From positions 19,843,224-19,907,223 of the forward strand of contig OZ316897.1 in NCBI GenBank assembly GCA_973895155.1: a DNA stretch of 64,000 bases, read 5' to 3'. Under the pieces are notes generated by a model. It was not told the origin of the DNA. It saw only the letters and a list, made by a program, of their open reading frames with translations, and did no database searches. Source of the DNA: Marsupella aquatica. Its lineage: Eukaryota; Plantae; Marchantiophyta. This document shows, piece by piece, positions 9,359-64,000 of the stretch. The translations under genes were made by a program, and so were the position numbers. The first letter of the stretch is position 1; the number at the start of each line of letters is the position of its first letter.

Positions 9359-10059
9359 AATAAGGAGCTCCGGTATGTACAGTCAGCTGTTCCTAAGTCG
9401 GCTCCTCTCAAGGCGTCTTGAAACTACTACAACTATGCGGGTACAGTTAGCTCGGACACTAGTGACTCAATTGAAGGCAGCAGCCGGATGTCGGAAGGAA
9501 TCTTGAAAAGGGTTGCAGCTGTTTCAGCAATAGTATGTCTACCCAACCAAAAGATCTACTTCACAATAGATGTAGCAACGGCAATGTGTCGAGCAATGTG
9601 TGCGCTTTGAAGACATGGAAAACTACACCGCGTCTGCTCAGCTCTCCCCCCTTGCAAAGCGAACCTCGATTGAATGTAAGATTAGTGATACTTTTCTCTC
9701 TTCGCTCTCTGCTTAAATAGTGGAGCTAGCCATACACGCCAGAAGAAATTCGCAGGTGACAGGTGACTCACAGATGACTAGCTCCTTTCTTGCATGGCAA
9801 CTAATTGTCAACTGACTATGATTACTTTTTTCTCTCCTCTTCTATGGTTAAATAAGGTAGCCAGACATGCCACGGCTCTTGTCAAAGAAACTCATAGTGC
9901 CTATGTGCATAATTAGGTCTCATGACTCACTTTCTCTATTTTCAATTTTCCATTGCCCTCGAGATCAAGGCACTCCAATAGAAACAAAGCAATCTCATGA
10001 ACATTCCAGGCTGCATGAAAAAATATTAAATAATAGAAACAAGCAAAAAACCCAATGCC

Positions 10060-40414: not shown

Positions 40415-43400
40415 GGACCATGTCAGTACTGTTCTGGTCAAATTTGATAATAGGTTTAGAGACTCCAATGAAGTTACATATGGCGGTTTAATAACCTCAG
40501 TTTTGCACAATTCAGTAAATAGTATCATGGTAGCATGTACATACCATTTATCTGCTTCTTGAAATACGCTTCTACAGCCGGCCTCTGTCCCATACTTTCA
40601 GGACAAACTACGTCGGTTTCAAAGTAATGAACAGCTTCCTAGCTGAGTTTAAATACTTTGGGCGAGCTTTAAATCCTTTAGGTGATTTGATAAAGTGTTG
40701 TGTTTCTACATGCGGTAACAGCTCACAAGATGGACATATTGAGTTTAACAGAGCGCCCTCTTTCCTGTTAGAGCGCGCTCATCCTGTTTTAGCGCTAGGC
40801 ATTTTATTTTCAATATTCATACAAGTTTGGCCTCAGTTGTAATTTATTATGACTCCATTTGTTTTCTGAATAATGTATTCAGCTCTAAGTCGGAGCATTT
40901 TGTTGCGTTTTTTTAGTAGATACACCATTATTTTTAGATCTAGGTTTCCATCATAATTGATGAAGGAAAACTGTATGCAGTTGCAAGTCTACAGATACTA
41001 CATACTTCACATCAAAATGAAATGATAAGCTCTTGCTTTGGTGCGGCTGCAATTTCTTTGCTATCATGTTTGTTACAAAACCCAAGAAAAGCTCCTTCCA
41101 AAATATTTGGCATCAAATGCAGTCACATAACTGAAGTACTATTGGTCTGAACAAACAAGAAAGTCTAATTGTCCAATAAGAACCAATTGAAACCTAACCA
41201 CTTGTGTTTGAGATAAGAAAAACAGTCATACCCATAGCAGTACATAAAAACATGGAATTTTAGAAATAGCACTTCAAGTAAACAAACAAAGAGGTACAAG
41301 AAAATAACCTTTGGGATGGGGGTCCATCAATACATCAGCGTTTGTCCAATAAAGTGATTGAATTTTCTGTTTAATTGACAGAATTTTGAAGTAGGCATGG
41401 ACAAAAATAAATCATTTGACTTCCATAACATCTTGCATAGAGTGTATGATTGGATAGAGGAGTACCAAGGGAATAGTAGAACCTTTGACTGTTAGAACAT
41501 TTTTCATTGACTTAATTTAAGTGGGACTTTATGAAATGTTACATTGACTGCTTGTCCGTAAATAGAAGTGCCAAAAGAATGTATGGACTCTTACCATGAA
41601 TAATCTTCTCATTGTCTTCAATTGAACATGTTTTAGCTACCTTAAACCCGGGTATGCAACTCCCTTTTTATAAGACAAGTTTTTTTAACTCCTTATAATT
41701 GTCTCATTTCCAATTGACCAATACTAGACTCTTGTACCTCCTAACTCAGGGAACAATTATATATTTACAACTCCAACTCCTTGGGCCCTCATACTTAAAT
41801 AATATGTGGGGTATGTGTAAACACTTGAAAGCTGGTTTTTACTCATTTTGAACTAATAATTATTAATGTTACAAGTAACAAGACAACTTCATATGGAAAA
41901 CCTAAATAACAAGGGGTAAGAGCAACTGGGTCATTATTGCAGGGGGTTCACTAAGTTTAATACTTGGACGGAGGGCCCAAGGCTCCAACTCTAGTTATAT
42001 AACAAGTCCTTAAAGGTACGGTACTTTTGATGTTTTTGGAAATGTTATATATATATTGACCAAGTTTAACATTGCACACATGTTACTTTGCAATGTTTGA
42101 ACTGGAAAAATTACAATGATCATGTCGCCTTCCAATCTTTTTAGAAAGATTCCATTGTTCATGTTTTTTGAAAATGTACATTGACCATGTGCAACTTTGG
42201 GCAAATATCACCCTCAATATTTGTGGAGACTATCATTCACATCCCGGGTACCTCATTTCTTCTTATCATTTATTGAAAACAATTCACAATAATAATTTCT
42301 TTAGATAAAACCTAAATAACTCATATTTGTAAGTATTGTTGTAAATGACTTTATGTTCAATACAACTTGTTGTCTAAAGCAACTCACACATAGTGCACTC
42401 AAAAGCAATTGACATTAGTGCACTCAAACTGTTAAGTTGTAATTTGTTTATTAGTACTCAGAAACAAGTTAATCAAATAGTGATATTAAGCTAACCAAGA
42501 CCAGAAAGTTTCTTTCTAGTCGTATGACAAATGACATGGTTATTTTCTTGGTTCTAAAGGAAAATTTAAGATTCTTTTTAGAAGAACATTAGGGTCTGGG
42601 TACGCAACTCAGGCATAATAGGCAGGGCGGGAGGCAGGTTCCATCTACATTTTTGTATGAACTCAAAAGCTGCCAATAATTAAAATTAAACTTGAAAACT
42701 GTTGTGTTTATTACTTTTAGTTAAAAAATTATGGTTTTTTAATCTTTTTCCATGTGATATTAAAAAGCATTTCTAAATTTTCTGTATTTTTATTAAAATA
42801 TGTTTTTGAGAAATTTCAATAAAATCTTAAAAAGTTGGCTAGTTTGGTTGTAGACCCTTGATTAACAAAAACCATATAATTTGGTTCTAACAAGTTCTTC
42901 CATATCAAAACAAGTTTGGTTGTTTGAAATGAAATTTCACATGGAACACGCTGACCAACCAAACAAGAAGTTGGATCCAACATTGGATTCCAAGTTGCAT
43001 GAGATACTTTTTGACAAAAAATGGCAATTAATTCATTAAAATCTCTGATTATATAACAATCCATCCTGAAAACATTTGTCAAACACAAAACCCATAAAAC
43101 AATGATTCACAAGTCCTATCTCCGCACGCTAAATTAATTTTCCCGACGAAACGTCCAAAACATGAATCTCCGTTTGGCTCAGATTTATTTTATTTTGTAG
43201 CATTGAATGAAGTGGCTGAAGCATCTCAAACTCGTCTTTCTAACGGTATCAATTATAAGGAGTTTGGATAAATAACGACAAAGATATGGCTTCCAAAGTG
43301 TGATAGAGTACAAACTTAATTTTACAAATAATTATTTTCACCTCACAATTAACTTAAAACATTGTAAGTGATGCCCTAGGCCCTGGTATGCAACCCCCCA

Positions 43401-46400
43401 TATTATTAAGCCAAGTTTATATCCAATTAACCATGTGAAGTTTTATTTTATTCTACTATTAAAATATTGTACTTCTCTATTTAGGATTCCAAAAATGTAA
43501 CTTAAGAAAAACCCTAAATCCTAAACCCAATTTTAGTTTTAATTACACCCAACTTTTTAGTTCATACAAAAATGTAAACCCTTGTGATGGGGAGGTCTCC
43601 ATATAGTGAGACCTCCAAGGGGGGTGCAAGATTGATTTAAGAATATCTGGGGTATTGTGGGGTCACTTCCACAGAAGTGACATATCACATGCAACAAAGT
43701 ATATGGTCATTTAAAATGGTTAATTTGATTGAAGATATATTGATCAAGTTGTTAGAGGAAATATAAGGTTGTTTAATAGCAAAATGCATGCTTGTCATCA
43801 AGTGATTATTTGGTGTTGTACAAATTCATATAAAGTTCTTAGGGGGGTCCTAAATGATCCAAACCTTCACACATAATTATGTCTGGCCCTCCATATATGA
43901 GGTGGCTGAGGAGGAGTTGCACAATTATGCTAAATGGAGTGAGAACATATATTTTCAGACCTTTTTTTCTTCCCTGTCCCCTCACCCCCATGCACTCTCT
44001 TTCTTTACTCCCGCTCTTCCTCCCATTGCCGATCTCCATCACTCCCTTCCCCTCACCCCCATATATGCCCGCTCTTTCTTTACTCCCACGTACTCTCCTT
44101 CCCACTGCTAATCTCCATTGCCCCCTTCCCCTCACCCCATGCCCTCTCTTTCTTTACTCCCACTCCCCCACTCATTGCTGATCTCCATCGCCTCTTGTTG
44201 CCCCTTCCCCTCCCCCTTTTTCTTTCCTCCACCACCACTAAAAATTAGATTAAAATTAATAGAGAAGAAATTACAGACCTCCAAACAATTGATCAGAAAT
44301 CGTTAGTTTCTCAAATTAAAGCAAATAGCCAAATACCTTTCAATGTCACTTTCCCTTTATTCACTCCAAGCCAGAAATCTGAATCTCTGGTCCATCTGAC
44401 TCTCAAGAGTACTCTCCTTCAATGCTCCATCCCAGGCTCCAGGCCAAAACACTTTATGCACAGGCTATACTATGGACACTAGGTTATATAGTATACTCAT
44501 TATTTTACTGTCAGTATGTGAAAGCAATTTTGGGTACTACCCATTTGAGTCATCCAACAGTCTCAAATAACTTTGGACAGTATCTGACCCTTGACGGTAC
44601 AATATCTAACCCTTGGTGTAATACGGAATATTGTTCCCTTAATTTTATCCTCACATTTCACTTCTCACAAGGAAGTCAAGTTTTCCTTGTATGAAAGGAG
44701 AGTTAGGAAACTGGGCAAGCTCGGAAAATGAAAGGTGTTCAGCACCAAGCACACAATTAATGGACAGGAAAATCCAGCCACAAATATAGTAACATATAAA
44801 CGCGAGTTTGTACATTACTATTGGACAATTGGAAATGGCTCTGAGATGTCCACGTACACCAGATAACCCCAGCTCAGCAACCATACTCCGAAGAACAGAA
44901 AAGTGTCTATATCACCAACCCCGCTACTGTCCATTACTCCTGGAGGGATTTTAGTAGCTCAATGTACAATTATTCCTTAAGGAAAAAACCAACGTAATTA
45001 ACCGTGCATGCCACTTGTCAACCTTTTCAATCACCCAGCCTCTACTGAGCACCCCCAAAGAAAGAACCCAAACCGAACAGTTTACCCGTCAAACCCCTTC
45101 AGTCACCAAGCACCTGAATTCCAATGAATAAGCCCAGATGTTAATTACCATCTGTGACTCAGGGCTAATCATATGTAATTAATTAAGTGAAGACAATGGA
45201 GCCTAACTTTTAACGTTTCAACCCCATTAGCTCACACCACGTCTACTGTCCATGCATGCTCATATTACTGTAAACCTAATCCGACCCGACTGGAAAGACA
45301 ATATAGGGAGAGTAGATTTTGCTTCCTGTGAATTAGCCCACTATTTGCCACGAAGTAGTGTCAGATCGACTATACAATGCATCATTCTGCGTTCTGCTAG
45401 TCATCCTACAATTGGCTAGATGACACAGAGTCATCAGTCAGTATCACGTAGTTGTCATCTGCCACATTCAGTTTCTAGTTAGCTATACCCAGTCAGTATC
45501 ACTTAGTTGTCATCTGCCACATTTAGCTAGTTTCTAGCTAGCTGTCCCCAGTCAGTATCACTTAGTTGTCATCTGCCACATTTAGTTTATAACTAGCTAG
45601 CTATCCCCTCTGGACAAGAATATAAGGAGCTTTTGCTCATGCTGGTCTTTCATTCCTCTCAGCATCTCGTTATCTATCTCTCGCACAATTGTCTGAGGCA
45701 GCGAGCACTCTAGCCTCCTAGCACTTCAGAAGATCGATAGACAAGAGTTGGACAGTCCAACCTGACTTTGCCAAGAGGAGATTGGACGTACAGAACTTGT
45801 ACGTATCAGAAGGCCAAAGAAGCTAGGAACAGAATAGGAACGCAAAGGGAGCGTTATCATCGTGCTACTCAAGTAGGTCTTGATTTATCTAGGTCGGAAC
45901 GTACTGGAACTGTGAACGTCTTGAAACTCTGGGATCCACATCTCGTGTCATACAGGTCGTGAATTAAGTGTCGGTGAGAGAAAAGAGGAAGCAAGAAGAT
46001 CGAACAAGTCTCAAATTGAAGCTCAAATGCAGCAGCGGTCAACGGAGCTTTACCTTGGAGATTTAGAGTCTAATGTATCAGAGGATTACCTTCATGAGAT
46101 TTTCAGCCAATTCGGTCAATTGGGCTCAATTCGCATTTATTGTGATCCGATTACTGGGTTTCTCTTGGGCACGCCTACATGAGCTACATAAACGCTGAAG
46201 ATGCCGCAGCAGCCATGGAGTTCCTGAACTTTGCTCCGGTGAATGGGAAGCCCATTCGCATTATGATTTCTTGCCGTGACCTTAGTGGACGGAAAAGGGT
46301 TCCAGCTTCGTGCAGTTCGAGCAGCAAGAGACAGCGCAGAGTGCCATCGCTAAAGTGAACGGCATGCATGCTCTTGAACGACTAATAGGTATATGTTGGA

Positions 46401-47990
46401 CCCTTTGTTAGTTGGCGAAAAAGGGAGTTATTTGTTGGACCCTTTGTTAGTCGGCGAGAAAGGGATAACTCCGGCGACGGTTCCAAGTTCAGCAATGATT
46501 TTGTTAACAACATTGCCGAAACTACCACCGATCAGGATCGAGTTGTATTCGGCTATAGATTTGTTGTATTTGGCGACATTAGCAGTGCCAACGCGGCAAG
46601 GGCCGTCAAGGTCTTGAATGGGAAGAGGGTTGAAGAGAAAGAGTGATACGTAGGAAATGCCCAAAAGAGGTCTGACAGAGAAGCAGAGAAAGAGCAACGT
46701 TTGAACAAGAGCACAAAAGCAGGATTCAACAACATCCGGGTTGCATTTTCTTCTGGCAGCCCCTTTTGGGTATCATTTTCCCGCAGAGTATTGGCTTATC
46801 TTACCAGCAACCGATGCTTGATATACGTCTAGAAACCTGGAGGAAGATAGGACCCAAGCTTCAGATTCCAGGTTGTTCTTAGCCAGAATCAGCAAGGTGG
46901 CAGGCCTGAAAGAGGGCAAAATCCAAGCTTCAATGGCCACCAGCAACAGAACCTTGCATGCTGTCTAGAGCTAGACCTGGAGATGGACTGGATACAAATT
47001 CAAATTTCTAGGTTGTTGGAAAGAATTAACAAGGTGGCAGGCCTGGACGAGGGCAATACCCAACCTTAAATGGTCCGGTTTTCCAGAGACAGAATCAACG
47101 AGGTGGTCACCACCGTGCAGAATGCAGATTTGGTAGTAGAGCTCCAGGACACCCACCTAAACAGCAGACACTGCCCTAATAGGTCATTGAGGCTTCCTTA
47201 TCATCAGATATTCAAGGATTATCGGAGTGAAAAGGTTTAGGGTGCATCTTAAGGCAACTCTGCCGAAGTTTTGGGTCAATTGCATTTTGTGTTTTGTGTT
47301 TACTCTATGGTGACATTTCTTGTTAAAAGGGAGATATCATCTTACTTTCAAACATAAGAATACCTTGTAAAACACTTTGGATGTCAATGCTTGGATGTTT
47401 CGCCCAGGTGCTATTGCAAAGAGGAGCAAAAAGTTTTGACAGCATTCTATACCATTTTTTAGAATAAAATTATATATATTCAAGTGTAATCTCGTTTTAT
47501 TTAATCTTACTACGCATGCTTCTAAAATTTTGTCCCACAAGTATAGAAAAGGAGAGCCGATGACTCTTTTGGGGCATTTCATAATACTGAACGCTATGAT
47601 ATTACATCCATATTCAAGTTGTTGGGTAAGATCATGATATGTTCCAGCTCCGGCATGAAACATCCTGTGGCGAGTCTAATATAATATCCACTCAAGTGAT
47701 GACATGCTGTGAATTGTTGCTAGTACATAAAATTAACCCATTTTGAGTGAGAAGGAAGATTTCAAAACCAGCCGCTCGAGCGAGGCTAGTCATCTCCGTC
47801 AACGAGAAATGACATCACCGAGACTTATAGGAGACTTATACGCAGAATGACCCATTCTATCATCTGACACTACTTCGTGCCAAATACACAGTGGGCTAGT
47901 ACGTTCACAGACAACAAAATCTACTCTCACTAATTTTACCATTCTATCATCTGAAACTACTTCGTGCCATATACATATATATAGTGGGCT
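40415..47990 (+). repeat. Segmental duplication unit A (related units about 48280-52350 and 52670-64000)
   Basis: Collinear shared blocks: 40870-41040/48360-48550/53310-53500, 42220-42930/49000-49730/53950-54660, 43360-44200/49910-50580/55040-55260+63389-64000, and 47200-47990/51520-52350. Confidence 0.85.
45965..47180 (+). pseudogene. Degenerate PABP-derived copy 2
   Basis: Homologous to 33365-32220 in inverted orientation ([42 protein letters not shown]). It has frameshifts, an RRM2 deletion and a ~39-bp duplication at 46395-46470. Confidence 0.85.
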
Positions 47991-50589
47991 AGTTCACAGA
48001 CAACAAAATCTACTCTCACTAATTTGTCTTTCCAGTCGGGTTACTTTTACAGTAGTACGAGCATGCATGGACAGTGGTGGCTGTGAGAGCTAATGGGGTT
48101 GAAAAGCTAGTTGAAGATCGATCCCAGCACGTTGGCTTTGGTTATAATCGAATAACCCCGACTCACAGATGGTTAGTGAATGAAGAAGTTTGACTGGACG
48201 GTAGACTGTAATGCACACCAGGCAATTGCGCTATCGAAAGAGAGAGAGACAATTGGACAGGGAGATGAATGAAAGATAAGTATGGGTTCCAAGCCATACA
48301 AGTGTATTTGAGGCATCGAGCACTTGTGCTCCCTTCTCCTCGATCATTGAGTTTATCATGAGACTCCATTCTTTCAGTAAAATGTATTGAAGCAGAACTT
48401 CTGGTTTGGAGCATTCTGTTGTATTTCTCAGAACTGACACCATTTTAGATCTAGGTCTCCATTATAATCGATAAGGAAAACTGTACGCAGCTGGAAGTCT
48501 ACAGATTCTAGATACTCCACTCCAAAACGCTACAATAAGCTCTTGCTATGCTGCAAACTATCTGCTATTATATATGTTTCTTGTAATATATCATCATGGA
48601 TACGGATCACAGTCTAAAACGTTTGTGGAAATCAAGTAAAGTAAATCGTTTCTTAAGGGTCCATAGACATAGTAGAGGGTTCTGGACTTTAATTAGATAT
48701 TAAAAATGTACAAAGTTACTGAAATTTAATTATGACGTTCCATATATTTTCATGTACCCATATGTGTATCATTTATGGAGATTTGTGGTACCTGAGGTGA
48801 ATATCGCCCATAACATTGAACCCCTACATCCCTACGTACTTACCTGAGCGTGAGCAGACATGCATTTGTAGGCCGGTGACAACAAGGCACCTTGAAGATC
48901 TTCAGCGTGTTTGGTCCATTCGTATTATCAAGGCTATCGGTCTCTCGTGATCATCAGTATTAAGTTTGGCTTTCCCTGCTTAGTTTGCCTTAACTCAATG
49001 TTTGTGGAGACTACCACATCCCCGGTACCACATTTCTTCTTATCATTTATTAAAATAAAAAAATCATAATAATAACTGTTTTGGGCAAAACCTAAATAAC
49101 TCAATGTTTCTAAGTATTTATTGTAAATGACTCTATGTTCAATATAATTAGTTGTCTAAAGTAATTGACATTAGTGTACTCAAAAGCAACTGACATTAGT
49201 GCACTCAAACTGTTAACTTATGAATTGTTTATTAGTACTCAGAAACAAGTTAATCAAATAGTGATCATAAACTAACATAGAACAATTTCTCTCTAGTGGT
49301 GCAACAAATAATATGGTTATTTTCTTGGTTCTAAAAGAAAACTTAAGAATTTTTTAGAAGAATATAATTAAGGTTTCAGTATGCAACTCGTGCATGATAG
49401 GCAGGCCGGGAGACAGGGTCCATCTACATTTTTGTATGAACTCAAAAGTTGCAGGCCTATAATAAAAATTAAACTTGAACAATGTTGTGTTTATCACTTT
49501 TAATTAAAAACATTATGGGTCATAATTATATAAAGTTTGCCAGTTTTTAATCATTTTCCACATGATATTAAAAATATTCTAAATTTTCTGTAATTTTTCT
49601 TAAAATATCTTTGAAATTTCAATAAAATCCTAAAAAGTTGGCTAGCTAGTTTGGTTGAAGAACCCTTGTATTAACAAAAACCATTTAATTTGGTTTTAAC
49701 TAATGAAGTTTTGCCATTTCAAAACAAGTTCGGCTTATTTTTTAATCTTGTACATATTTGGATTCTTTGAATTTAGAGGTACAATAGTTTTGTAGACTGA
49801 AATGAAACTTTACATGATTGGCCAGTTTTGGCATAAAGTCACTCTAAGGAATTAAAAACTTACCTTGTAAAACTAAAATTTCACATGGTCAATTTGGCAT
49901 AAATTGGTTATGCAACTAGTATGCAACTCCCCATATTATTAAACCAGGTTTATATCCAATTAACCATGTGAAGTTTTACTTTATTCTATTATTAAAATCT
50001 TGTGCCTCTCTACTCAAGGATTCCAAAGATGTAACTAATAAAAGAAAAAATCATTAACCCTAAACCCAAATTTAGCTCTAATTACACCCAACATTTTAGT
50101 TCATAATTATAAAAATGTAAACCCTTGTGATGGGGAGGTCTCCATATAGTAAGACCTCCAAGGGGAGTGCAAGATTGATAAGAACATCTGGGGTATTGTG
50201 GGGTCACTTCCACAGAAGTGGCATATCACATGCAACAAAGTATATGGTCATTTAAAGGGTTAATTTGATTGAAGATTTATCACGTTGTCAAAGGGAATGT
50301 AAGGTTGTTAATTAATAGCAAAATGCATGCATGTCATTGAGTGATTGGTGTTGTACAAATTTATATAAAGTTCTTAAGGAGGAGGGGTCATAAATTATCC
50401 AAACCTTCACATAAAATTATGTCTGACCTCCCATGTATGCGGTGGCTGGAGCTAGGAGTGTATGCTATATGGAGTGAGAACATACATTTGACCTATATAT
50501 TTTTCTTTCCTACATCCCCTCACCCCATGCCCTCTCTTTCTTTACTCCCACTCTCCTTCCCATTGCTATGATCTCCACTGCCTCCTACA

Positions 50590-51520
50590 CCGATTACTGG
50601 GTGTTCTCTTGGGCACGCCTAGGTGAGCTACATAAACGCTGAAGATGCTGCAGCAGCCATGGAGCTCCTGAATTTTGCTCCTGTGAATGGGAAGCCCATT
50701 AGCATTATGATTTCTTGCCGTGACCCTACTGGACGAAAAAGGGTTCCGGCTTCTGGCAGTTCGAGCAGCAAGAGACAGCGCAGAATGCCATGCTCTTGAA
50801 CGACAATAGGTATTTGTTGGACCCTTTGTTAGTCGGCAAAAAAGGGATAACTCTGGTGAAGGTTCCAAGTTCAGCAATGGTTTTGTTAAGAACATTGCCG
50901 AAACTATCACCGATCAGGATCGAGTTGTGTTTGGCGATAAATTTGTTGTATTCGGCCACATTAGCAGTGCCGTTGTGATGCGGGACAGTGAGGGGGAGTC
51001 CAGTGTTTTGGATTTGTCAATTTCAATTACAAACAGTGACGACGCGGCCAGGGCCGTCGAGGCCTTGAATGGGAAGTGGGTAGGAAAGGCTTTTTTTGGC
51101 CTTTTTTGGGATTCATTCCCCCGCAGAGTATTGGCTTGTCTTACCAGCTACCGATTCTTGATGTACGTCTAGAGACCTGGAGGAAGATAGTACCCAAGCT
51201 TCGGTTTCCAGGTTGTACGTTCTTAGCGAGAATCAGCAAGGTAACAGGCCTCAAAGAGGGCAAATCCAAGCTTCAATGGCCACCAGCAACAGATGCTTGC
51301 TGTCTACAGCTAGACCTGGAGATGGACTGGATCGATACAAATTCAAACTTCCAGGTTGTTGGAAAGAATTAACAAGGTGGCAGGCCTGGAAGAGGTCAAT
51401 ACCCAACCTTAAACGGCCCGGTTTCCAGAGACAGAATCAACGAGGTGGTCACCACCGTGCAGAACGCAGATTTGGTAGTAGAGCTTCAGGACACCCACCT
51501 AAACAGCAGACACTACCCTA
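50590..51520 (+). pseudogene. Degenerate, 5'-truncated PABP-derived copy 3
   Basis: Near-identical to 46148-47180 and retains VVFGHISSAVVMRDSEGES..DDAARAVEALNGK of RRM3. Confidence 0.85.
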
Positions 51521-54500
51521 GCTAGCTAATAGGGCATTGAGGCTTCCTTATCATCAGATATTCAAGGATTATCCGAGTGAAATGGTTTCCGGTGGATCTT
51601 AAGGCAACTCGATCTGCCAAAGTTTTGGGCCAATTGCATTTTGTGTTTTGTGCTTACTCTATGGTGATATTTCTTGTTAAGAGGGAGATAGCATCTTACT
51701 TTCAAACATAAGAATACCTTATGAAACACTTTGGATGTACCGCAATGCTCGGATGTTTCGCCCAAGTGCTATTGCAAAGACGAGCAAAAAGCTTTTCAAA
51801 GCATTCTAAACCATTTTTTAGAATAAAATTATATTCAAATGTAATCTCGTTTTATTTAATCCTATAACGCATGCTTCTATAATTTTATTCCACAAGTATA
51901 GAAAAGGAGACACAACTATAGAAAAGGAGAGCCGATGACTCTTTTGGGGCATTTCATAATACTGAACGATAGGATATTACATCCATATTCAAGTTGTTGG
52001 GTAAGATCATGATATGTTCCAGCTCCGGCATGAAACATCCTGTGGCGAGTCTAATATAATATCCACTCAAGTGATGACATGCTGTGAATTGTTGCTAGTA
52101 CATAAAACGCATTTTGAGTGAGAAGGAAGATTTCAAAACCAGCCGCTCGCGCGAGGCTAGTCATCTCCGTCAACGAGAAATGATATCACCGAGACTTATA
52201 GGAGAATGACCCATTGTATCATCTGACACTACTTCGTGCCAAATACATAGTGGGCTAGTACGTTCACAGACAACAAAATCTACTCTCACTAATTTGACCC
52301 ATTCTATCATCTGACACTACTTCGTGCCATATACATATATAGTGGGCCCGTTGCTGAGTCGATCTTGTTAGAACCAGTAAAACAGTTCCCCTCTTGGAGA
52401 CTCTACTAACTACCTACATGGGACTTTAGATACGTACCATGAAGGTTTTGAAATCTCCCACCATAAACCTAACATACTTCGGGAATTTTCGTTTTCCCAC
52501 CCCAAGAAACCCACATTGGAAAAATATTTGTCTACTTTAAAATAGTTTAATTGAACCCCCACGTAATCTTTATGAAATTGGCCGTTTATCACAGATTAAC
52601 GCAGGCAATTTCACAAATTCCATCAGGGAGCGGGACAGATTTGCCTTGTGAGAAGGGGAAGGGTAACATGACTCAGTTCATGTTCTTAATCTCGTTGTAT
52701 AAGCCAGTAATGTAGTTATAGATCTCCAGGGATCTGAATTCCTTAATATTTGCTAATTTGCTAATTAACTGGGGCTGAACGTACGTGTCAAGGCTGCTGA
52801 AAGGAGATTTATGGGACGTTCTCAAAATATGAGTATGACGTAAGTGGCTAGCTATTCGTGGACCATCTACTATTCTGGTGAAATTTTTTATAATAGCTTA
52901 AGTGACTCCAATGAAGATATGGCTGTACAACACTCCAGTTTTGGTAAACTCAGTAAGTAGTAGCATGGCAGCCTCCACGGCGCTTCTTTCAAATACGCGT
53001 CTACAGCCTCTCTCCGGCATTCTCAGGACAAACGACGGCTCAAATTAAATATCTGACAGCACCATAGCTGAGTTTGAATACTTTGAGTGATTTGACAGAC
53101 AGTTGGGTACGTTTAATCTTGCCGACACCTTTTCTCACTAACAGCTCAAAAGATGGACATCTTGACTTTAATTGCAGCAGCGCCCTTCTTCCCGTTAGTG
53201 CTCACATCTTGCTTTGGCTCCAGGCATTTTTGGTCCAAGCCATACAAGTGAATTTGCGGCATCGAGCACTTGCGCTGGCTTCTCCTCTACCATCTTTGAG
53301 TTTATCATGAGACTCCATTCTTTCAGTAAAATGTATTGAAGCAGAATTTCTGGTTTGGAGCATTCTGTTGTGTTTCTCAGAACTGACACCATTTTAGATC
53401 TAGGTCTCCATTATAATAGATAAGGAAAACTGTACGCAGCTGCATGTCTACAGATTCTAGATACTCCACTGCAAAACATTACAATAAGCTCTTGCTATGC
53501 TGCAAACTATATATCTGCTATTATGCTTCTTGTAATCGTTATAGATACGGATCACAGTCTCAAACGTTTGTGGAAATCAAGTAAAGTAAATCGTTTCTTA
53601 AGGGTCCATAGACAACTTAGCAGGGTTTTGGAATTTAATTAGATATTAAAAATGTACAAAGTTACTGAAATTTAATTAGGACGTGTCATATATTTTTATG
53701 TACCCATATATGTGTATCATTTATGGAGATTTGTGGTACCTGAGTTGACCGTCGCCCATAGCATTAAACCCCTACATACCTACTTACCTGAGCGTGGGCA
53801 GACCATGCATTTGTAGGCCGGTGACAACAAGGCGCCTTGAAGATCTTCAGCTTGTTTGGTCCATTCCTAATATCAAGGCTATTGGTCTCTCTTGATCATC
53901 AGAGTATTAAGTTTGCCTTTCCCTGCTTATTTTGCCTTAATTCAATGTTTGTGGAGACTACCACATCCTGGGTACCACATTTCTTCTTATCATTTATTAA
54001 AAAAAATCATAATAATAATTGTTGTAGACAAAACCTATATTACTCAAGGTTTCTAAGTATTTGCTGTAAATGACTCTATTTCAATATAATTGGTTGTCTA
54101 AAGCTATTGACATCAGTGCACTCAAAAGTAACTACATTAATGCAAACAAACTGTTAAATTATGAACTGTTTATTAGTACTCAGAAACAAGTTAATCAAAT
54201 AGTGATAAACTAACAGAGAACAATTTCTTTGTAGTGGTGCGACAAATAACATGGTTATTTTCTTGGTTCTAAAAGAAAATTTAAGAATTTTTTTAGAAGA
54301 ACATTAAGGTAACTTTGGGTACGCAACTCGTGTATACTAGGCAGGCCGGAAGACAGGGTCCATGTACATTTTTGTATGAACTCAAAAGTTGCCTATAAAA
54401 AAATTAATTAAACTTGGAAATTTTTGTCTTTATTACTTTTAATTAAGAAAAATATGAGGCATATACAAAGTTTGGTTTTTAATCATTTTCCACATGATAT

Positions 54501-55585
54501 TAAAAAACATATCTAAATTTGCTATAGTTTTTCTTTAAAGATTTTAAGAAATTTCAATAAAATCCTAAAAAGTTGGCTAGTTTGGTTGTAGAGCCTTGTA
54601 TTAACAAAAACCATATAATTTGGTTTGAACAAATGAAGTTTTGCCATATCAAAACAAGTTTGGCTTTTTTAATCTTGTACATATTTGGATTCTTTGAATT
54701 TGGAGGTACAATAGTTTTGTAGAATGATTGAAATCATGAAACTTTACATGATTGGCCAATTTGGCAAAAGTCACTCTAAGGAATTAGAAACTTACCTTGT
54801 AAAACTAAAACTTCACATGATGGTCAATTTGTCACAAATTTGTTATCAGAAATTATAAACTTGCCTTACAGAAATATATAGGAGTTGCAAATTAGGGCCT
54901 TTCAAACTAAATTTTTGAGACTTACACAACACTAGGGCATTTATCAAAATTTGAGAATATTCCAAGAATATTTCAGCTAAGTTATAGGGGGTAGTAATGT
55001 TTTACTTCAATTTTAGGGGGTCTCAGGCCTAAAACGTTGTAAGTGATGCCTTACGCCCTGGTATGCAACTCCCCATATTATTAAACCAAGTTTATATCCA
55101 ATTAACCATGTGAAGGTTTATTTTATTCTACTATTAAAGTCTGGTACCTCTCTACTCAAGGATTCCAAAGATGTAACTAAAGAAAATACCATAAACCCTA
55201 AACCCAAATTTAGTTTTAATTACACCCAACTTTTTAGTTCATATAAAAATGTAAACCCTTGAATAACAAGAAGCCTTAAGGGATGAGTCCAAAGCCTTAT
55301 TTCTCTTTTCAAAATCTTCATGATATTAAAAAGTGTATACCAAAAAACCACCAAAAAATGGTATGTATTTTCCAAACTAGACTCAAGAGAATTTTACCAC
55401 CAAAATCTAAGCATATCTTATATGATATTCTCACAATTGTATAAACCTTGAAATATGCACTTTATAAAAGTAATCAAAATCAAACTCATCGATCAGAGTT
55501 TAAGTCAAACTCAAAGTTTTACAAAATATAACCCAACTTAAGCCCAAGTGGTTTCAAATGCTACGAGTCCCTCTATTTATCTAGT

Positions 55586-58500
55586 CTAATCCAAAGGGAC
55601 CGCTTCCCCTTCCTCGGTTTCGGAAGTCCCTGTCGTCAATTCTGGAACAATTGTGGCATCGTCAACCACGCTATCCTCTCCGGCCTGAGGAATGTCTTCC
55701 TCACTCTCCTCATCCATCTCCCCCTGTCCGTCTTCCTCTTCAATGTTATCTGCAAGGTTAAGAATCCTCCCTTTCAACACACTGCTCTGTCGCTCGTCAA
55801 TCTCAATGGCAACGCAATGTCTCCCCATGGCCAAGGAGGAGGTTGTCCCAGTCCCTGATCCTGAACAAATATCCAAAACCCAGTCTCCAACCTGACTAAA
55901 ATGACTCACTTCCCAATCTAACAATGCACGTGGTTTCTGATAAACATTCACTGCCTTGTTATCCCCGTTGTGTTTCAGCTTCTTAGTCACAGCTGCGCAT
56001 ACAACCACATTGTTCCTTGATTCATTTGTGTCAAAATTGAAGTGCTCCAATGACCGTTTACCATCCTGGCTGTGAAAGCCAATTGTAAAGCACTCAAAGT
56101 TGTTGTTCAATCTTGGTCCACCAGCATTCTTCACATTATCCTTAACCCTGAAAAGTCACAAAAAGTCAAGGAGTTATTTAAACTGAGAAACATGGTTCAT
56201 GAAATCATGAATAACTAATAGTTGTTTTTTTCAAAAACAAATATTTCTTACCACACACAATTCTGGAACCCTCCATTACACTCCGCTTTCAAAACGGTCT
56301 TGATGGCCTCATATTGGTCAAGGCTGTGGTGAATGATAATACGCCACAACTTTGCAGTAGTAGCCACCTTGAACGATTGGACCATTTTTGTGATCTCCTC
56401 AGTTCCCCATCCAATAGTGTCTTCATGAAGACATCCAGGCAATGCAAACCCGTAGGGAATATCCACTAAAGCTAATGTGTAAGCCCGACCCGGAACCACC
56501 TCATGTAATCGCTGAGCATCATGAGTAAAAATATCATAGTGCACATCACCAAACTCTGGATGCTCAAACGAATTTGGATGAAGTTCCCCCTCTTGGGTTT
56601 GCCGACTAGAAGTCTTCATGGATAGCCAATTTTGGGCTTGCACAATATGCGCATTGAATTTGTCCGGGAATGACTTGAGATCTTTGCCTTCCTCATCTCC
56701 CTTCTTTTTCCGGGAGGTGGTATCTTTCTACAAAAAGGAACTGTAGAATTAGAAACAAGGATTCCAAATATTAAATGAATTCAAACAATCATTCGAAGAA
56801 AGGTGACAGAATCTTACCCATGTCTGGAAAACAGGTACGAAATTCTTAAGCACATTGTCTGTGCAATGCTCAGGGTACTTGGTTTTACAACCTGACCAAC
56901 TCTCCTCGTGTAGACACGTGAGGAAGGCCTTCTGCACCTGCATCTGAAATTTGTGTCGAGTAAATTCGTGACCCATTTCATGTAAAGAGAGTTCTTTAGT
57001 AAGAACTCTCTGTAACACTGGGCAAATCATATCAGGATCTTTCAAGGCTTGCATGTGTCTCCACTCTGTTAATTTCATGTCCTCATAAGGCAATTTGGCA
57101 TCTCCAGACTTAGAGACTTTCTTCTTGCCTTTGTCTCCTTTTTGACCTTTGATCTCACACATCTCCCACTTGTCACAAATCTGCCTCACAAATGACCACA
57201 CAGGATCTTGTCGGAATGCCAACTGAAATAGGTTATCATTGGCATTAAGAACCTCAGCATCCTTTCGTACACCCCAATCCTTGAGATTGATTTCAGTAGC
57301 ACACTCTTTCTTGAAATCCTGGTTGGACGACAATCCATTCTCAACAAATCTCATGTGAATATAATTTACTCTCTGGATTGTCGTCATCTGTTGTCGAAAT
57401 TCAGAATCAATATTGTGACTCCACGCCAGGTTTCTTGCCTCTTGCACACTCAATCCCGCAAATATCCAAGATTGCACTCTCCGAAATGCCTTGTTGTTAG
57501 GGAACTGAAGAGCAAGGTCTGCTTTGGCACAGGCTGAATGGTTGCCCCCAATCACATAATAATGGTAATCAGCTTTCCTTGAAAAATCAAAGTCTTGCCT
57601 AGTAGCACACTCCTTCGGATCCACCAAGAGGACAAACGGAGCTGCAAGTGGACTGGCACCTACAGTCTTCATCCGCAAGGTCAATTGGGTCAAGAAATAT
57701 GGTTGGATGTGTCGGACCTGGTAAATGGGCAAGCCCACAGCCTTCTCTCTCACTGGAGGGTAAAGTTGACCAATGTCAACGGTCACGGTCTCCTCTTGAA
57801 CACCACATCTTCCCAGAATCTCCTCCTGGTACAATACCCGTGCATCCATTGACATTGATTGAGCCTTTTGCTCCAAATGCGTTGGAATTTTCTCCAAAGT
57901 CTTCTTTTTTGACTTTGTAGCACTGGGCTCGGTAGGCTCATGAGTCATAGCAGGTCGCTTCTTTGAAGAAATGCGAGTTCCAGTCGTACCTTGTGCCGAC
58001 CCACCAGTCAAAGCCGTTCCCTGGGATGATCTGCCAACTTGAGATCCCCCTCCAGATGCTGCTGCTTCCCGGGAGGTTGTAGGCGCTACCACGGTCAAAA
58101 TATCATTGGGTAAAATGCTAGGCCTGGATCCAGAAGGAACACCGGAAGCCCCAGATTTGGGTGGACGACTTACTCCCTTCTCTGCCGACCTTTTCCGGAG
58201 AATCTCTCTTGATTTTCGGATTGCACTCTTTAAAGTGCTAGCGTGAAATTCAAACACAAAACCGAAATCTTTCCCGCGACGTCGTGGTAACGTTCCTCAC
58301 TCGAAAGAGACTTGACAGTCTCAATGATGCTATCGATGTCCTCATCGAGATAGCAGGTGGCAGCCGTTCCAGAAAACCTCTCCACATCCACGACAATCAA
58401 AGTTGATGTTTCCTTCGTTGTGATCAACATGTTCACAACTTCGTCGCCCCATCGAAATACATCGATGCGGCCGTAATTTACCCACCCTAATGCCCCCGAT

Positions 58501-58646
58501 GGAAGCCCCTCAAATACACACAGCATTAGGAAGGGCTTCTTCCATGTTTCCGTCCCTAAGGAAATCGTCCAGGATGAGTTGTGGAAGTCCGTCAAAGGAT
58601 GGCGCGAAAAGATGTCATCCACCAGCTCTTCCTGCGACATTGTCAT
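55586..58646 (-). CDS. ParB/Srx-like domain + beta-class N6-adenine/N4-cytosine DNA methyltransferase fusion. Exons 58646-56818 (apparent frameshift near 58270), 56727-56252, 56147-55586
   Basis: YYVIGGNHS (ParB/Srx-type), LALVDIPYG (motif IV-like), CVW|VKDN...NNFE, then YQKPRALL..FSQVGDWVLDICSGSGT...GRHCVAIEID (motifs X-I-II). Motif IV before motif I is the beta-class order. Two GT-AG introns splice in frame. Confidence 0.85.
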
Positions 58647-58810
58647 GTTTTTGCCTGATCTTCAAACCTGAGAACATACCACAAAATCAGTCCACTTCAA
58701 CCCCAACCTGCGAGACAAAGTGCCACAGAACCAAGGAATGTGCCAACAAATGGCTACTAAAACCGTGTCCTTACGGATCTAACAACGCTCTCGGCCACCC
58801 CAGGACTCCT

Positions 58811-58876
58811 ATCATGAATTCATGAAGGGAGTCTCCCTCTCGCTCCGACCTTCATGAATTCATGAAGGGAGTCTCC
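58811..58876. promoter_or_regulatory. Duplicated palindrome TCATGAATTCATGA in the divergent promoter of the element
   Basis: tcatgaattcatgaagggagtctcc at 58812 and 58852. Further TCATGA at 59192, 59224, 59267 and 59340. Regulatory role is inferred. Confidence 0.55.
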
Positions 58877-59425
58877 TCTCTCTTTGCTTGTACACCTCGG
58901 TGATGCAGAAGGGTATTTAAAATAGGGTTCGGAGGGGGGTGACGTGAAGAAATCACCCAGGGCCTAAATTACTACCTAAAACAGGGTCGAAATGAAGTGC
59001 GACCGCGACAACTCGCGACACGTCGCTGATGAGTGCTGAAAATGGCACGAAATTGGACAGCGAGATTGTTTTTCACTCTTTTACAAAGGAAATCCAAATG
59101 ACATTGAGTGAAAATGAATGGGCTGCCCCGTGTTCCTTGGTTATACATACTAATCACGGATCAGGCGCGACTTAGTAAAATTAACCCTGAATCATGATAA
59201 ATCAATGTTTTCGGGCCAATTATTCATGAATATTTTGGGGTATTAACGGGAAAAAGCTTGCAAATTTCATGAATATTTGATATTTTTGAAGTTAAAAAGT
59301 CCCAACAATCCGTGAAAAACTATAAATAGGCTCGTTTATTCATGACTCTTGGTCATTATTTTGAGAAGATTTGTTAGATTTTACTGATTTTCTGAGTTTC
59401 TTGTCAATTTGCACTAGTTTTTCCA

Positions 59426-62400
59426 ATGGCGGCATGTTACGAATCAGATGATTATTCAGATGGAGTTTCTGATGATGTTTCATTGCCGGATGGCCCCTGC
59501 ACAGTGGTTGGCCCAGATATCCCTGGAATAACTACTGTTTTAGATATGCCACCCCCCACCCCTATGAGCAAGTTAAAACGTAGTCCTTTACGACTTGCAA
59601 TTAGTGGGAAGAAATCATTGGTCGGTGGTAAAGAGAGGTCAGGGAGCTCCTCTGACTCCTTGGAGAGTATTGGTCCCCCTGGACGTCAAGTTGTATCTCC
59701 TTTGTCACCAACAAAGGACAAATTGGGGAGTAATCTGGAAGGTTCAATGCCTATTTGGATGTCTGGGAAACGGTCTCATGAATTCATGAAGACTGGATTT
59801 GGAAAGACGAAGAAGGCACTAAGTGGGGAAAATGACAGAGATTTTTGCAGTCTCCAAAGTGTTCAGCGGCTGAAGCAAATGCCAAAAAGTAAAACCTTTG
59901 GTAAGCCAACGTCGGAAACATTTCACAGGGGGATGAGGGAAGAAACTAGACAACCAGTGTTATTGAGAAGTATTCCAGAAAAGAATTCTAATGTGCGTTC
60001 CTCAGTTTTACCTAGGAGTCATGGTGTTGGGGCAGGGAGCGGATCAAGTCACGGAAACTCAAACAGGGAAACCAACCTGGTGGAGAGGGACCCTAGGAAA
60101 ATATTGAAAGGGTCCCTACACGGTAATGGAGGGATTTCTGAAATACGCCCAGGTATTCCAAGGGTGCATAGAGTGAAGGAAGAGCCTCCATCTCCGAAGG
60201 CTGCAGGTCTGGAATCTAGGCATGTTCAGAAGCAAATGTTGGTGACCATTTCATCATCGAATGAAAGCGAGTCTTTGGAGAGTGGGGAGGATGATGATGT
60301 TCCGGTGGCATCTAGTCGTTACAAACGTACGAGCAACGCCACTTTGTGTGAAACAAAGTTGAAAGAGGAGGATATCAAGAAAACAAATAGTAAGTACTGT
60401 TGTCAGAGTCATTGTCTCCTAAGTCTATCTCCAAAAGAAATTCGTGAGGCGCGTTCTAAATTTTTGAGGCAGAAATCTCAGGATCGATCTTTATCTTTGT
60501 AGTGGCTTATAAAGCGAGACGGAAATGAAGGAGGGAGGCAAACTATATCTTACACGTTTGGTCAAAAGAGTATTTGTCGGAAAGCTTTCAAGCTTATATT
60601 TTGCGTTGGCAATCATAGATTAAATAGAATTTTGAAATTAGACAACCAAGACTTAGGATATTCTAAACCAGTTGGACGCCCTCCATCTGTTAAAAGATTA
60701 GTCTTGGTCAGTTGGCTTAGGTTGTTTTTTGAGACACGCGTGGAAACATTGCCAAATAAAGAAGTTTCACATTTACCGGATAATTATTCAAAGCTGGAGG
60801 TATGGAAGATCTACGACTCCAACTATGCCAAGATTGATGAATCTTCAAAAATATCCTATCGACAATTCTTGAAAGTTTGGGTTCAAGAATTTGGTCATGT
60901 GAAGATTCCTCCAGTCAATCGATTCAGTGCTTGCGCGGATTGCAAGGAGTTCAAATCAATTCGGGATAAAGCTGTCTCGGAGACCGAAAAGAGTAAGTTA
61001 CTTACAAGTTTGACAAGTTTTTGTTTCAAGAATATGGCTTAACACATGATTTCTAATTTTTTTTGAAGAAACTAACAAGTTGTTTTTCCAGGGCGAAGGG
61101 AAATTATGTTACAAAAACATAGAGACCAACAATCCAAAGAACGTGAGAAACTCGCAAAGCATCGTAAGAAATGTTTTTCAAATTCTGATAAATATTTGGG
61201 AGTTGTCATTGATGGGATGGATCAGAAGAAGACAAGGTTGCCTCATTGGCCGCGGCCCCCAAAATCGGTGGACGAAACATGTTTGATCCAAATGCACGTT
61301 GTCGGATGCCTGGTTTTCAATGGTGCACTATTTTCAAGAGTGTTTCTTAATTATCCTGTATTGCATAATGATGGAAACTTGACAGTCACAATCCTGCAAA
61401 GGGTGTTTCACGAATGGGAAGAAAAGCCTGGTGGCTTGCCGCCTGTTCTCTATCTTCAACTTGATAATACCAGTAGAGAAAATAAAAATAATTTACTCTT
61501 TGCCTATCTTCATATGTTGATTCGAAGAAAAGTTTTTCGGAAAATCAAACTAGGATTCTTGTTGGTTGGACACACACACGACTAAATAGATCAAATGTTC
61601 AGTCGATTTTCTAAACGACTAGCAAGGTTTAAGGCATTCACATACGAAAGCCTATGTGATATTATTTGTGAATCATATCAACCCCAACCAAATATCACTC
61701 TTTTAAAGGAAACATATGATTTCCGTCAATATGCCTTCTCAGATCCACCTTTAGTCATTGAAAGGATTCGAAATGTTACCTTCCACCACCAGTACAAATT
61801 TGCATTTGACAAGTTGGAAAATCAAGTTCCAACCCAATGGGGGAAGAAGTTTTCCACGGACTCAACTTGGAAACCTGACGGAGGCGTGAAATTTTTGAGG
61901 GAAGAGGAGCCAGAAAAGGTGATGGGTTGTGCTCCCGGATTACCCCTTTTCAAAAAGGGGGATAAGAACGTTACAAGGACTCAACCAAATATGTCTAGTT
62001 CTTCAAGAATGACTTTGAAGGAGATGGATGATTCGTTAAATGAGATTCAAAAGGGAATACTTGCAGTTGAAACTTTATTCTTAGAAGAGGAAGTGAACTG
62101 GTGGAGAATGTTTTTTGAAGAGCAACGGGAATTGAATAAATCTTTGCTCCTTGATCAAAGACCATTGATTTTCCCTTTTCAATGGCCACGCTCCCAAAGG
62201 GAGATTGCTGTTGCTGCTGAAGTTCCCAGAGTCCTTGTCAATGAAGAGGAAATTGAAGAGAGAGTATACGGACCTACCAGAGATATATACGTGGGTCCTT
62301 ATCGGAATCAAGGAAAGATAGATGCAGAGAAGGAGAATATGGAAGGAGACTTTTCGGATCTTGAAGTCAACACTTATATTTCTGTTGCTGGAGAAGAATC

Positions 62401-62824
62401 GGAAACATTTTGGGTGGCCAAGGTGGAAAGAATTGACCAGCGCGATGAGTTCAACATTCCAAAAATGATTTATGTTTTATGGCATGCTACAAAAACCGGG
62501 TCAGATCCTTGGAAAGCCAAGTACTTACCAGAAGTCTTAAACTACGAAAAGAAGAAAAGTGGTCGTGGGAAAGGAACTTTGAAACCAATATGGTTTCACC
62601 AAGAGCTTGATTTATCTTCAACGACTGTTTTTGCTTACAACTTCATGTTGACAAAATCTGATACATTGTACAAAAAGACAGTAGATCGAATCAAAATCCG
62701 ATTGACTGAATTTTTGGCAGAAGAGAAAGAGCAAGAACAAGAGAATGGATCAACTAGAACCCCGCTAGGAGATAAATCTAGGGATATTTCGTTCCAAGAA
62801 TTGAGGACTTCTAGATCTGAGTAA
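59426..62824 (+). pseudogene. Sola1-like (DUF7869-type) DDD transposase, exons 59426-60992 and 61092-62824, in-frame stops at 60500 and 61583
   Basis: CCQSHC, ICRKAF, FSACADC...H, VIDGMDQKKTRLP, LYLQLDNTSRENKN, FLLVGHTHD*IDQMFSRFS. Reading continues in the same frame across both stops. Confidence 0.82.
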
Positions 62825-64000
62825 TGAAAAGTAGTTATTGTTTGTGACATTACCATTGAAAAACATGGATAACTTGAAATTTTACAAATTTTCAAAATGC
62901 CTTTACCACTTATTCATGAATTCATGGTTAAAGTTTCTTGAAAAATTTGTAGTTTAATATTATCTTAGTGGGTTGTGTTTCAATTCAATTAGATGGTGTC
63001 ATTTCTATTCTCCTTGTCTTCTTTTCACAATAATGTGTATCAGGTTAAGTTGTAGTAATTTATTTTCTGGTTTTTAAATGACAATGGCTTTTGGAGGTGA
63101 TTTAGTTGTTGTTTCAAAAGACACCTCGTGTAATTGTGAGACCATTGTAGATAATAGTGTTGTATTTGAGATCATTTATTGGTGGAATGTAACTTCAGAT
63201 GAATTTGGTCATTTTTAGGTGTCAAAACATAGCTAGTTTATGTCATATTTTGTTCGCTCCATATTTTTGCTCTAAAATAGGTGCTAATTTTTGCACTTTT
63301 TTTGACTTTTTCGTTGTTTTTCTGATTTTTTGGCTAGAGTTCCTAAAGTATGGGCTTGTTACTCATCATTTAAGGCTTCTTGTTGAATGTGATGGGGAGG
63401 TCTCCATGTAATAGTGAGACCTGCAAGGGGGGTGCAAGATTGATAAGAACATCTTGGGTATCGTGGGTCACTTCCACAGAAGTGACATATCACATGCAAC
63501 AAAGTATATGGTCATTTAATTAAAAGGGTTAATTTGATTGAAGATTTATGGAATGACCAAGTTGTCAAAGGAAATATAAGGTTGTTTAATAGAAAAATGC
63601 ATACATATCATCACATGATTGGTGTTGTACAAATTTATATGAAGTTCGATCTTAGGTGGGGGCCTAAATGATCCAAACCTTCACACCTAATTACATGTCT
63701 GGCCCTCCATATATGAGGTGGCTGAGGAGTTGCACAATTATGCTCTATGCAATGAGAACATATGTTTGACCTTCTTTTTCTTCCCTACATCCCCTCACCC
63801 CCATGCCCTCTCTTTCAATTCTTTACTCCCACTCTCCTTCCCATTGCTGATCTCCATTGGCCCCCTTCCCCTCACCCCATGCCCTCTCTTTCTTACTCCC
63901 ACTAGATCTCCCACTAATTGCTGATCTCCATTGCCCCCCTTCCCCTCCCCCTTTTAAAAATGAGATTAAAATAGAGAAGAAATGACAACATCAACGTACC

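Follow-up and report, generated by a model that had tools for sequence, protein, structure and literature searches.

Why would a plant DNA transposon carry a bacterial-type DNA methyltransferase (MTase) fused to a ParB-like domain? The question is raised by an element that occupies positions 55265-63384 (8,120 bp; two divergent genes) of a 64,000-nucleotide stretch of the liverwort Marsupella aquatica (contig OZ316897.1, positions 19,843,224 to 19,907,223; hereafter, the window). To judge from sequence comparisons, it belongs to a family of plant transposons in which a beta-class amino-MTase fused to ParB is a stable component. We lean modestly toward reading it as one decayed copy among many of a Sola1-like, two-gene transposon whose ParB-helix-turn-helix (HTH)/MTase protein would bind the element's own palindromes and methylate nearby DNA, probably at adenine. 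The element itself, the stable pairing of its genes, the palindrome arrays, and selection acting on both domains are observed; binding and marking in cis enter this reading as predictions.

A metagenome scan retained 80 of 123 loci, two at 66 to 69% identity and most at 29 to 40%. In all 10 loci whose sequence extends 3 kb or more upstream of the ParB match (ParB-region identity, ~30 to 35%), a divergent transposase was present; 16 loci had at least 2 kb there, and the six shorter than 3 kb do not reach the transposase. Of the 51 loci that extend 900 nt or more downstream, 48 contain MTase exons. Median ratios of nonsynonymous to synonymous substitution rates (dN/dS; non-independent pairs with dS of 0.15 to 1.5 and at least 60 codons) were 0.077 for ParB (104 pairs), 0.049 for MTase exon 2 (75 pairs), 0.049 for MTase exon 3 (86 pairs), and 0.058 for the transposase core (8 pairs). 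Among seven families, transposase distances were correlated with those of the MTase (r = 0.87, p = 0.019) and of ParB (r = 0.85, p = 0.036); the trees were poorly resolved (one and zero starred branches).

A search of 1.84 billion protein sequences yielded 410 matches. Of 20 homologues looked up, 11 were named (Chara braunii, 5; Riccia sorocarpa, 3; Adiantum nelumboides, 2; and Ginkgo biloba, 1), and the closest named homologues were from the liverwort Calypogeia fissa. Word-based or single-query searches of phage records, viral contigs, and prokaryote genomes, which distant donors could escape, found no sequence match. The initial annotation had proposed a plant transposon family with a ParB-MTase, had argued against bacterial contamination, and had named a one-off capture as an outcome that would refute it. 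The family stands, and neither capture nor contamination is supported: the pairing recurs with purifying selection on both domains, other copies retain the MTase exons with dN/dS near 0.05, and plant genes surround an element that lacks prokaryote, phage, or viral-contig matches. Separately, three single-ORF (open reading frame) proteins (P0131, P0152, and P0234; 691 to 902 amino acids) had a ParB-plus-methylase layout at ~24% identity, two of them with DLPY or DPPY, suggesting that the fusion may extend outside plants.

We infer the splicing of both genes from GT-AG ends and homology. The predicted ParB-MTase gene (minus strand, 58646-55586) has three exons, two GT-AG introns, and 955 codons, and its spliced product matched C. 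fissa CAM6129466 at 63% over 404 amino acids, spanning both introns. Its motifs follow the beta order (DIPY at residue 699, QKP at 839, and DICSG at 861), and exon 3 scored 35.4 bits against PF01555 (cut-off, 26.7 bits). Compared with solved enzymes, the MTase profile reached an E value of 1.8e-18, and the top matches were beta enzymes forming N6-methyladenine (m6A). The Rossmann MTase fold, which the initial annotation had asked to be checked, was found in the atlas model of a homologue, P0018 (template modeling [TM] score to PF01555 clusters, 0.71 to 0.78). The middle region folds as ParB/Noc in a model with a predicted local distance difference test (pLDDT) score of 80.6 (E value, 1.3e-5; Z score, 8.7; root mean square deviation [rmsd], 2.8; 95 residues aligned) and is followed by a helical DNA-binding region; a Pfam scan of this region, including those of 18 family members, returned no ParB match. 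An Arg upstream of the ParB box (R63 of A2) is invariant. Both the GGNH ParB/Srx-like domain and the beta-order amino-MTase (DIPY, QKP, DICSGSGT) were thus correctly recognized from the start.

Which base would such an enzyme modify? Among 68 motif IV reads taken from the 150 best homologues, most had D-x-P-Y and none had SPPY. The family MTase profile scored m6A enzymes at 60 to 70 bits, versus 35.9 for N4CMT and 32 for PvuII. The absence of SPPY and the higher scores of the m6A enzymes make N6-methyladenine in DNA (6mA) a likelier product than N4-methylcytosine (4mC). On the same grounds, an origin of MpDN4MT1, the 4mC writer of bryophytes, from such elements is unsupported. CATG, GATC, and TCGA showed no enrichment and no clear depletion in the element; thus, no 4-bp methylation target could be deduced.

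Family-specific phased palindromes between the genes, which were absent from the initial annotation, are new here. Five copies of TCATGA-N2-TCATGA (at most one mismatch) occur in the element versus none in the other 55.9 kb of the window; at two mismatches, there were six (shuffle mean, 0.78; maximum, 5). The same palindrome occurs in locus L001, both upstream and in the same MTase intron; in L002, both places are occupied by a symmetric variant, TCATGC-N2-GCATGA. The motif of a distant clade, TCGAT(G/A)C-N3-G(C/T)ATCGA, occurred two or more times in 27 of the 80 loci (153 sites versus 0.1 in base shuffles; 33 different spacers), and half-site pairs matched in 97 of 106 exact sites. In 10 two-gene loci, 57 of 59 sites were intergenic, in a zone making up 21% of the locus length. 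The spacing had a period of 10.35 bp (56 distinct gaps; 20 families, each represented by a single locus), with a mean cosine of 0.72 that was reached by 0 of 2,000 jittered sets. Both the half-site and the predicted HTH recognition helix differ between the two clades; within the distant clade, HTH residues did not covary with the G/A half-site variants. Fixed half-sites, a free spacer, and helical phasing are the expected trace of a dimeric DNA-binding protein, and the palindromes are likely the binding sites of the ParB-HTH region. Another palindrome, TTGATAC-N2-GTATCAA, which resembles the intergenic half-site, lies ~100 bp inside the transposase-side end at L035:3257, L046:604, and L060:217.

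These features suggest how the system might work. An HTH dimer would read the palindrome half-sites, several dimers would load on one helix face in the promoter region that the two genes share, and the methylase tethered in this way would mark element DNA in cis. Methylation could then control the two divergent promoters, and marking might help the element stay active against host silencing by 5-methylcytosine (5mC). More tentatively, the family may represent a widespread land-plant read-write lineage, with ParB dimers on a phased promoter array, clamp-like spreading, new binding specificities evolving from one family to the next, and a family-specific 6mA self-mark that would keep the element active in hosts lacking the usual 6mA writer.

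Several observations weigh against binding and marking by the ParB-MTase. The loci were found via the ParB gene, so copies without the ParB-MTase could not appear, and those retained came largely from one assembly series. Since the palindrome gaps share ancestry, the p value for phasing is optimistic; intergenic palindromes were absent from L046 and single in L047 and L049, and the covariation of helix and motif involves two states only. The codon at 60500 was not seen open in other copies of the window family. ParB/Noc CTP clamps have an arginine-rich box II, GERRxR; here, box II is an invariant GG[NS]HS and this motif is absent. Motif IV departs from the canonical (D/N/S)PP(Y/F), being DIPY in the window and DPPY in 3 of the 68 reads, and several homologues carry DLPR, DIPH, or DFPC. 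Finally, related adenine methylases (DAMs) of retrotransposons produced no 6mA in Escherichia coli (bioRxiv 2026.05.21.726589), perhaps because the right substrate was missing.

The motif IV departures favor a protein that is an operator-binding regulator, with a catalytically silent methylase domain that only binds or flips bases or aids dimerization. In three elements, an intron of the gene itself contains a palindrome, an arrangement like that of autoregulation; this fits the explanation, as does the view that DIRS MTase domains are inactive (PMC4738411). However, the Asp, Pro, and Tyr residues of motif IV are kept, as are QKP and the S-adenosylmethionine (SAM)-binding motif, at dN/dS near 0.05, and deeper homologues carry DPPY or DLPY; we consider a silent domain unlikely. 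Dam times IS10 transposition via methylation after replication, and an active ParB-MTase might time transposition by postreplicative methylation, produce 4mC, or act broadly. Half-sites containing both A and C (CATG and TCGA) and the repeated 6mA/4mC switching of PF01555 enzymes (PMC8885841) would allow this, but the lack of SPPY, the lower scores of 4mC enzymes (32 to 36 bits), and a ParB-HTH with its own sites, suggesting local targeting, make it more doubtful still. It is improbable that the transposase uses the phased palindromes as enhancer sites and that the ParB-MTase targets something else: one copy is found 470 bp inside the right end and the TTGATAC palindrome is subterminal in three relatives, but nearly all sites in the two-gene loci lie between the genes, far from the ends, and ParB-adjacent inverted-repeat arrays recur in the unrelated Plavaka elements described from red algae. 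The breaks in both genes of the window copy might suggest a one-off passenger-gene capture or contamination, an explanation rendered scarcely credible by the layout shared among all the long loci, the purifying selection, the surrounding plant genes, and the lack of phage, viral-contig, or prokaryote matches. Binding and methylation of the element's own DNA remains the reading we prefer.

Features of the element and of the two empty paralogous sites in the window
Feature	Position	Strand	Remarks
Empty paralogous site 1	43568..43600	+	Host repeat, outside element; junction 43583/4
Empty paralogous site 2	50111..50143	+	Host repeat, outside element; junction 50126/7
Likely target-site duplication, left copy GAAT	55261..55264		Missing from both empty paralogues
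Left terminal inverted repeat	55265..55296	+	Starts AACA, as in relatives
ParB-MTase exon 3	55586..56147	-	QKP, SAM-binding motif I DICSGSGT, acidic tail; PF01555; best PDB match CcrM
ParB-MTase intron 2, GT-AG (predicted)	56148..56251	-	Contains one palindrome; same position in L001 and L002
TCATGA-N2-TCATGA	56197..56210		MTase intron 2; aligned with L001 and L002 palindromes
ParB-MTase exon 2	56252..56727	-	Motif IV DIPY at 56463; 61% to C. fissa CAM6129466
ParB-MTase intron 1, GT-AG (predicted)	56728..56817	-	Spliced product versus P0018: 63% over 404 amino acids
ParB-MTase exon 1	56818..58646	-	N-terminal domain, low-complexity linker, ParB domain (GGNH at 57549), helical HTH-like region; frameshift near 58263
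Two TCATGA-AT-TCATGA, 40 bp apart	58812..58865		Intergenic; candidate ParB-HTH sites
Transposase exon 1	59426..60992	+	Disordered N terminus, Cys-rich motifs; stop 60500-60502; holds palindrome at 59776
Transposase intron, GT-AG (predicted)	60993..61091	+	Missing in distant relatives
Transposase exon 2	61092..62824	+	DUF7869 core, Asp at 61211, 61463, and 61589; stop 61583-61585; C-terminal beta domain
Subterminal palindrome, one mismatch	62914..62927		470 bp from right end
Right terminal inverted repeat	63353..63384	-	Terminates TGTT
Likely target-site duplication, right copy GAAT	63385..63388		Adjoins right terminal inverted repeat

The bounded element described in the initial annotation was located in sequence, with its terminal inverted repeats (TIRs; 32 nt each; complementarity, 84%) and GAAT flanks; at up to six mismatches, the left TIR matched only these two TIR copies in the window. 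The claim of empty paralogous sites was partly borne out. Two host-repeat copies are uninterrupted, and both read CCCTT/GTGATG across the junction without any GAAT, 4 bp short of the prediction for a simple duplication; these sites confirm the insertion point and leave the target-site duplication (TSD) unproven.

The second gene (plus strand, 59426-62824; one predicted GT-AG intron; 1099 codons) matched the DUF7869 profile at 109.8 and 45.8 bits (cut-off, 26 bits) and has three conserved Asp motifs in its core, in agreement with the claim of two divergent genes, one encoding a DDD transposase. A model of the transposase of an intact relative, L047 (low confidence; pLDDT, 53.6), resembled integrase and other RNase H-like cores with Z scores of up to 8.3 (rmsd, 3.4; 100 residues aligned), and on this modeling, the transposase is of the DDD type with an RNase H-like core. 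A conserved C-terminal beta domain (FWxAKV...WY; window, 62350-62700) weakly resembles DNMT1 BAH1 in the L047 model (E value, 0.03; 89 columns); as a lead only, this BAH-like end is a possible chromatin-targeting module.

Is the element a Sola1 transposon? Sola1 elements have a 4-bp TSD (PMC10741241) and an AWWT target preference (PMC3845634). TIRs were also found at both ends of L030, L035, L046, and L047. A 4-bp direct repeat flanks two of the five complete elements (GAAT in the window and TGTT in L030) and was not found at L035, L046, or L047, where the flanks may stem from different copies. Across 33 relative termini, identified by a search that favored AACA starts, the inner sequence is constant and the flanks differ within a family; only 1 of the 33 junction 4-mers was AWWT, and the window has GAAT. 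Compared by eye and unscored with the consensus of the Sola1 hidden Markov model profile (positions 1 to 30 and 82 to 107 of 124), the second Asp motif agrees (lysDncagqNkn versus LQLDNTSRENKN) and the first disagrees (fdlqkvlslP versus IDGMDQKKTRLP). Given the targets and the first Asp motif, we classed the element as Sola1-like (AAC-ended DUF7869 branch) and not as canonical Sola1. The original Sola1-like label is therefore fair with respect to the DDD core and TIRs, and canonical membership is unsupported.

The window copy is decayed: two stops (60500 and 61583) interrupt the transposase frame, and the MTase gene carries a one-base frameshift near 58263. Family contigs were obtained from four of seven listed sequencing runs. 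In X1, X2, and X3, nearly all of the contig depth had a sense codon at 61583 and one extra base at 58263; the 60500 stop was not among the 40 listed of 610 contig differences, and relatives are open there. Depth was even over both genes in three runs and, in X1, was 484 to 1100 inside the element versus 34.5 in the last flank bin and 17.4 in a flank contig; family contigs of 1.0 to 1.8 kb had a depth of ~570 and 3 to 9 differences. Depth itself gives no copy number, and these values are consistent with some tens of near-identical two-gene copies. One X1 contig (depth, 293) jumps from 59793 to 63325, skipping 3.5 kb of transposase with 23 letters on the short side, and may represent a common nonautonomous derivative that retains the MTase gene. 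A near-identical element occurred under two organism codes (shares, 0.67 to 0.83; runs X1 to X5) and partially under a third, which may reflect close relatives or transfer.

Other copies differ in form. A TIR-bounded 6.0-kb copy at L046:506-6549, with a short intergenic region and broken frames, is likely a deletion derivative; an L047-family element is nested inside another family's element at L011:3280; and a separate repeat with long inverted arms adjoins the element at L035:11222-14963. Upstream of the window element (459-33368), plant genes encode DUF247, a HECT E3 ligase (5288-9382), a SET domain, an SNF2 helicase, and an RRM protein (12 ORFs scanned; 5 above the Pfam cut-off). The regions 42200-55260 and 63385-64000 contain duplicated blocks of 0.6 to 1.7 kb (80 to 91% identity), including the host repeat, and no long ORF.

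The Ectocarpus and red algal studies only propose that transposons write non-5mC marks of their own. The compact two-gene elements, the intact relatives, and a predicted site for each clade make the idea directly testable here. If true, it would add to VANDAL a second epigenetic tool by which plant transposons act on themselves, as well as a local source of 6mA in land plants and possibly a site-tethered methylase.

The closest known system is Sola1-1_Ec32, reported in 2025 from Ectocarpus, in which a 1104-amino-acid ParB plus N4/N6 methylase gene lies opposite the transposase and self-modification was proposed (PMC12477816). According to its supplement, the termini are AACCG-CGGTT, the TSD is 4 bp long, and the transposase best matches Sola1-1_PPa from Physcomitrella (PMC12477816). 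Compared by description, the two share a Sola-type transposon, a ParB-like plus methyltransferase gene opposite the transposase, and AAC termini. Sola1-1_Ec32 is 21.5 kb long with a 282-bp TIR and AACCG ends in a brown alga, whereas the present family has 7.6- to 8.1-kb two-gene elements with an ~32-bp TIR, AACA ends, and a 955-amino-acid protein in land plants; palindrome arrays and a selection test are not described in the available account of Sola1-1_Ec32. Novelty thus applies to the land-plant member and not to the layout, which was already in Sola1-1_Ec32. Our literature searches, which did not extend to Repbase, Iyer 2011, or preprint supplements that may hold one, returned no land-plant report of this design. 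With the present family, a transposon design published only recently gains a member in land plants.

Red algal Plavaka PAG2/PAG3 elements have a ParB-domain gene beside tandem inverted repeats and a PF01555 methylase, and self-binding was proposed (bioRxiv 10.1101/2025.02.11.637652). They resemble the present family as DNA transposons with a ParB gene near inverted-repeat arrays and a PF01555 methylase, but have an EnSpm/Plavaka transposase and two separate genes, one fusing ParB to a 2-oxoglutarate (2OG) oxygenase and the other fusing the methylase to SET. DIRS and long terminal repeat (LTR) retrotransposons carrying DAM likewise combine a eukaryotic mobile element with a prokaryotic-type adenine methylase, which was linked to element 6mA (bioRxiv 10.64898/2026.05.21.726589); these are retroelements with an NPPY-type DAM and no ParB in the published description, in which DAM-LTRs are reported absent from streptophytes. 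Neither a reverse transcriptase nor an NPPY DAM domain was found in the window element by the profile scan and motif IV reads. N4CMT of bdelloids and MpDN4MT1 of Marchantia are also eukaryotic beta-class PF01555 enzymes, of bacterial origin and producing 4mC (PMC8885841; bioRxiv 2021.02.12.428880), but are described as host genes with SPPY, a chromodomain or no extra domain, and no ParB.

The best structural match of the MTase part was a cluster of 96% viral ParB_N plus N6_N4_Mtase proteins (TM score, 0.76). Compared with phage ParB-methylase fusions, the present family differs in having no sequence-level phage match, predicted introns, and box II GGNHS. Bacterial ParB/Noc proteins, which act with parS/NBS sites, are similar to the ParB part in fold. 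VANC of VANDAL elements is an anti-silencing protein of MuDR-superfamily plant transposons that causes 5mC loss and has no methylase. Like VANC, the ParB-MTase is a plant DNA transposon protein that is predicted to act on its own element's sequence.

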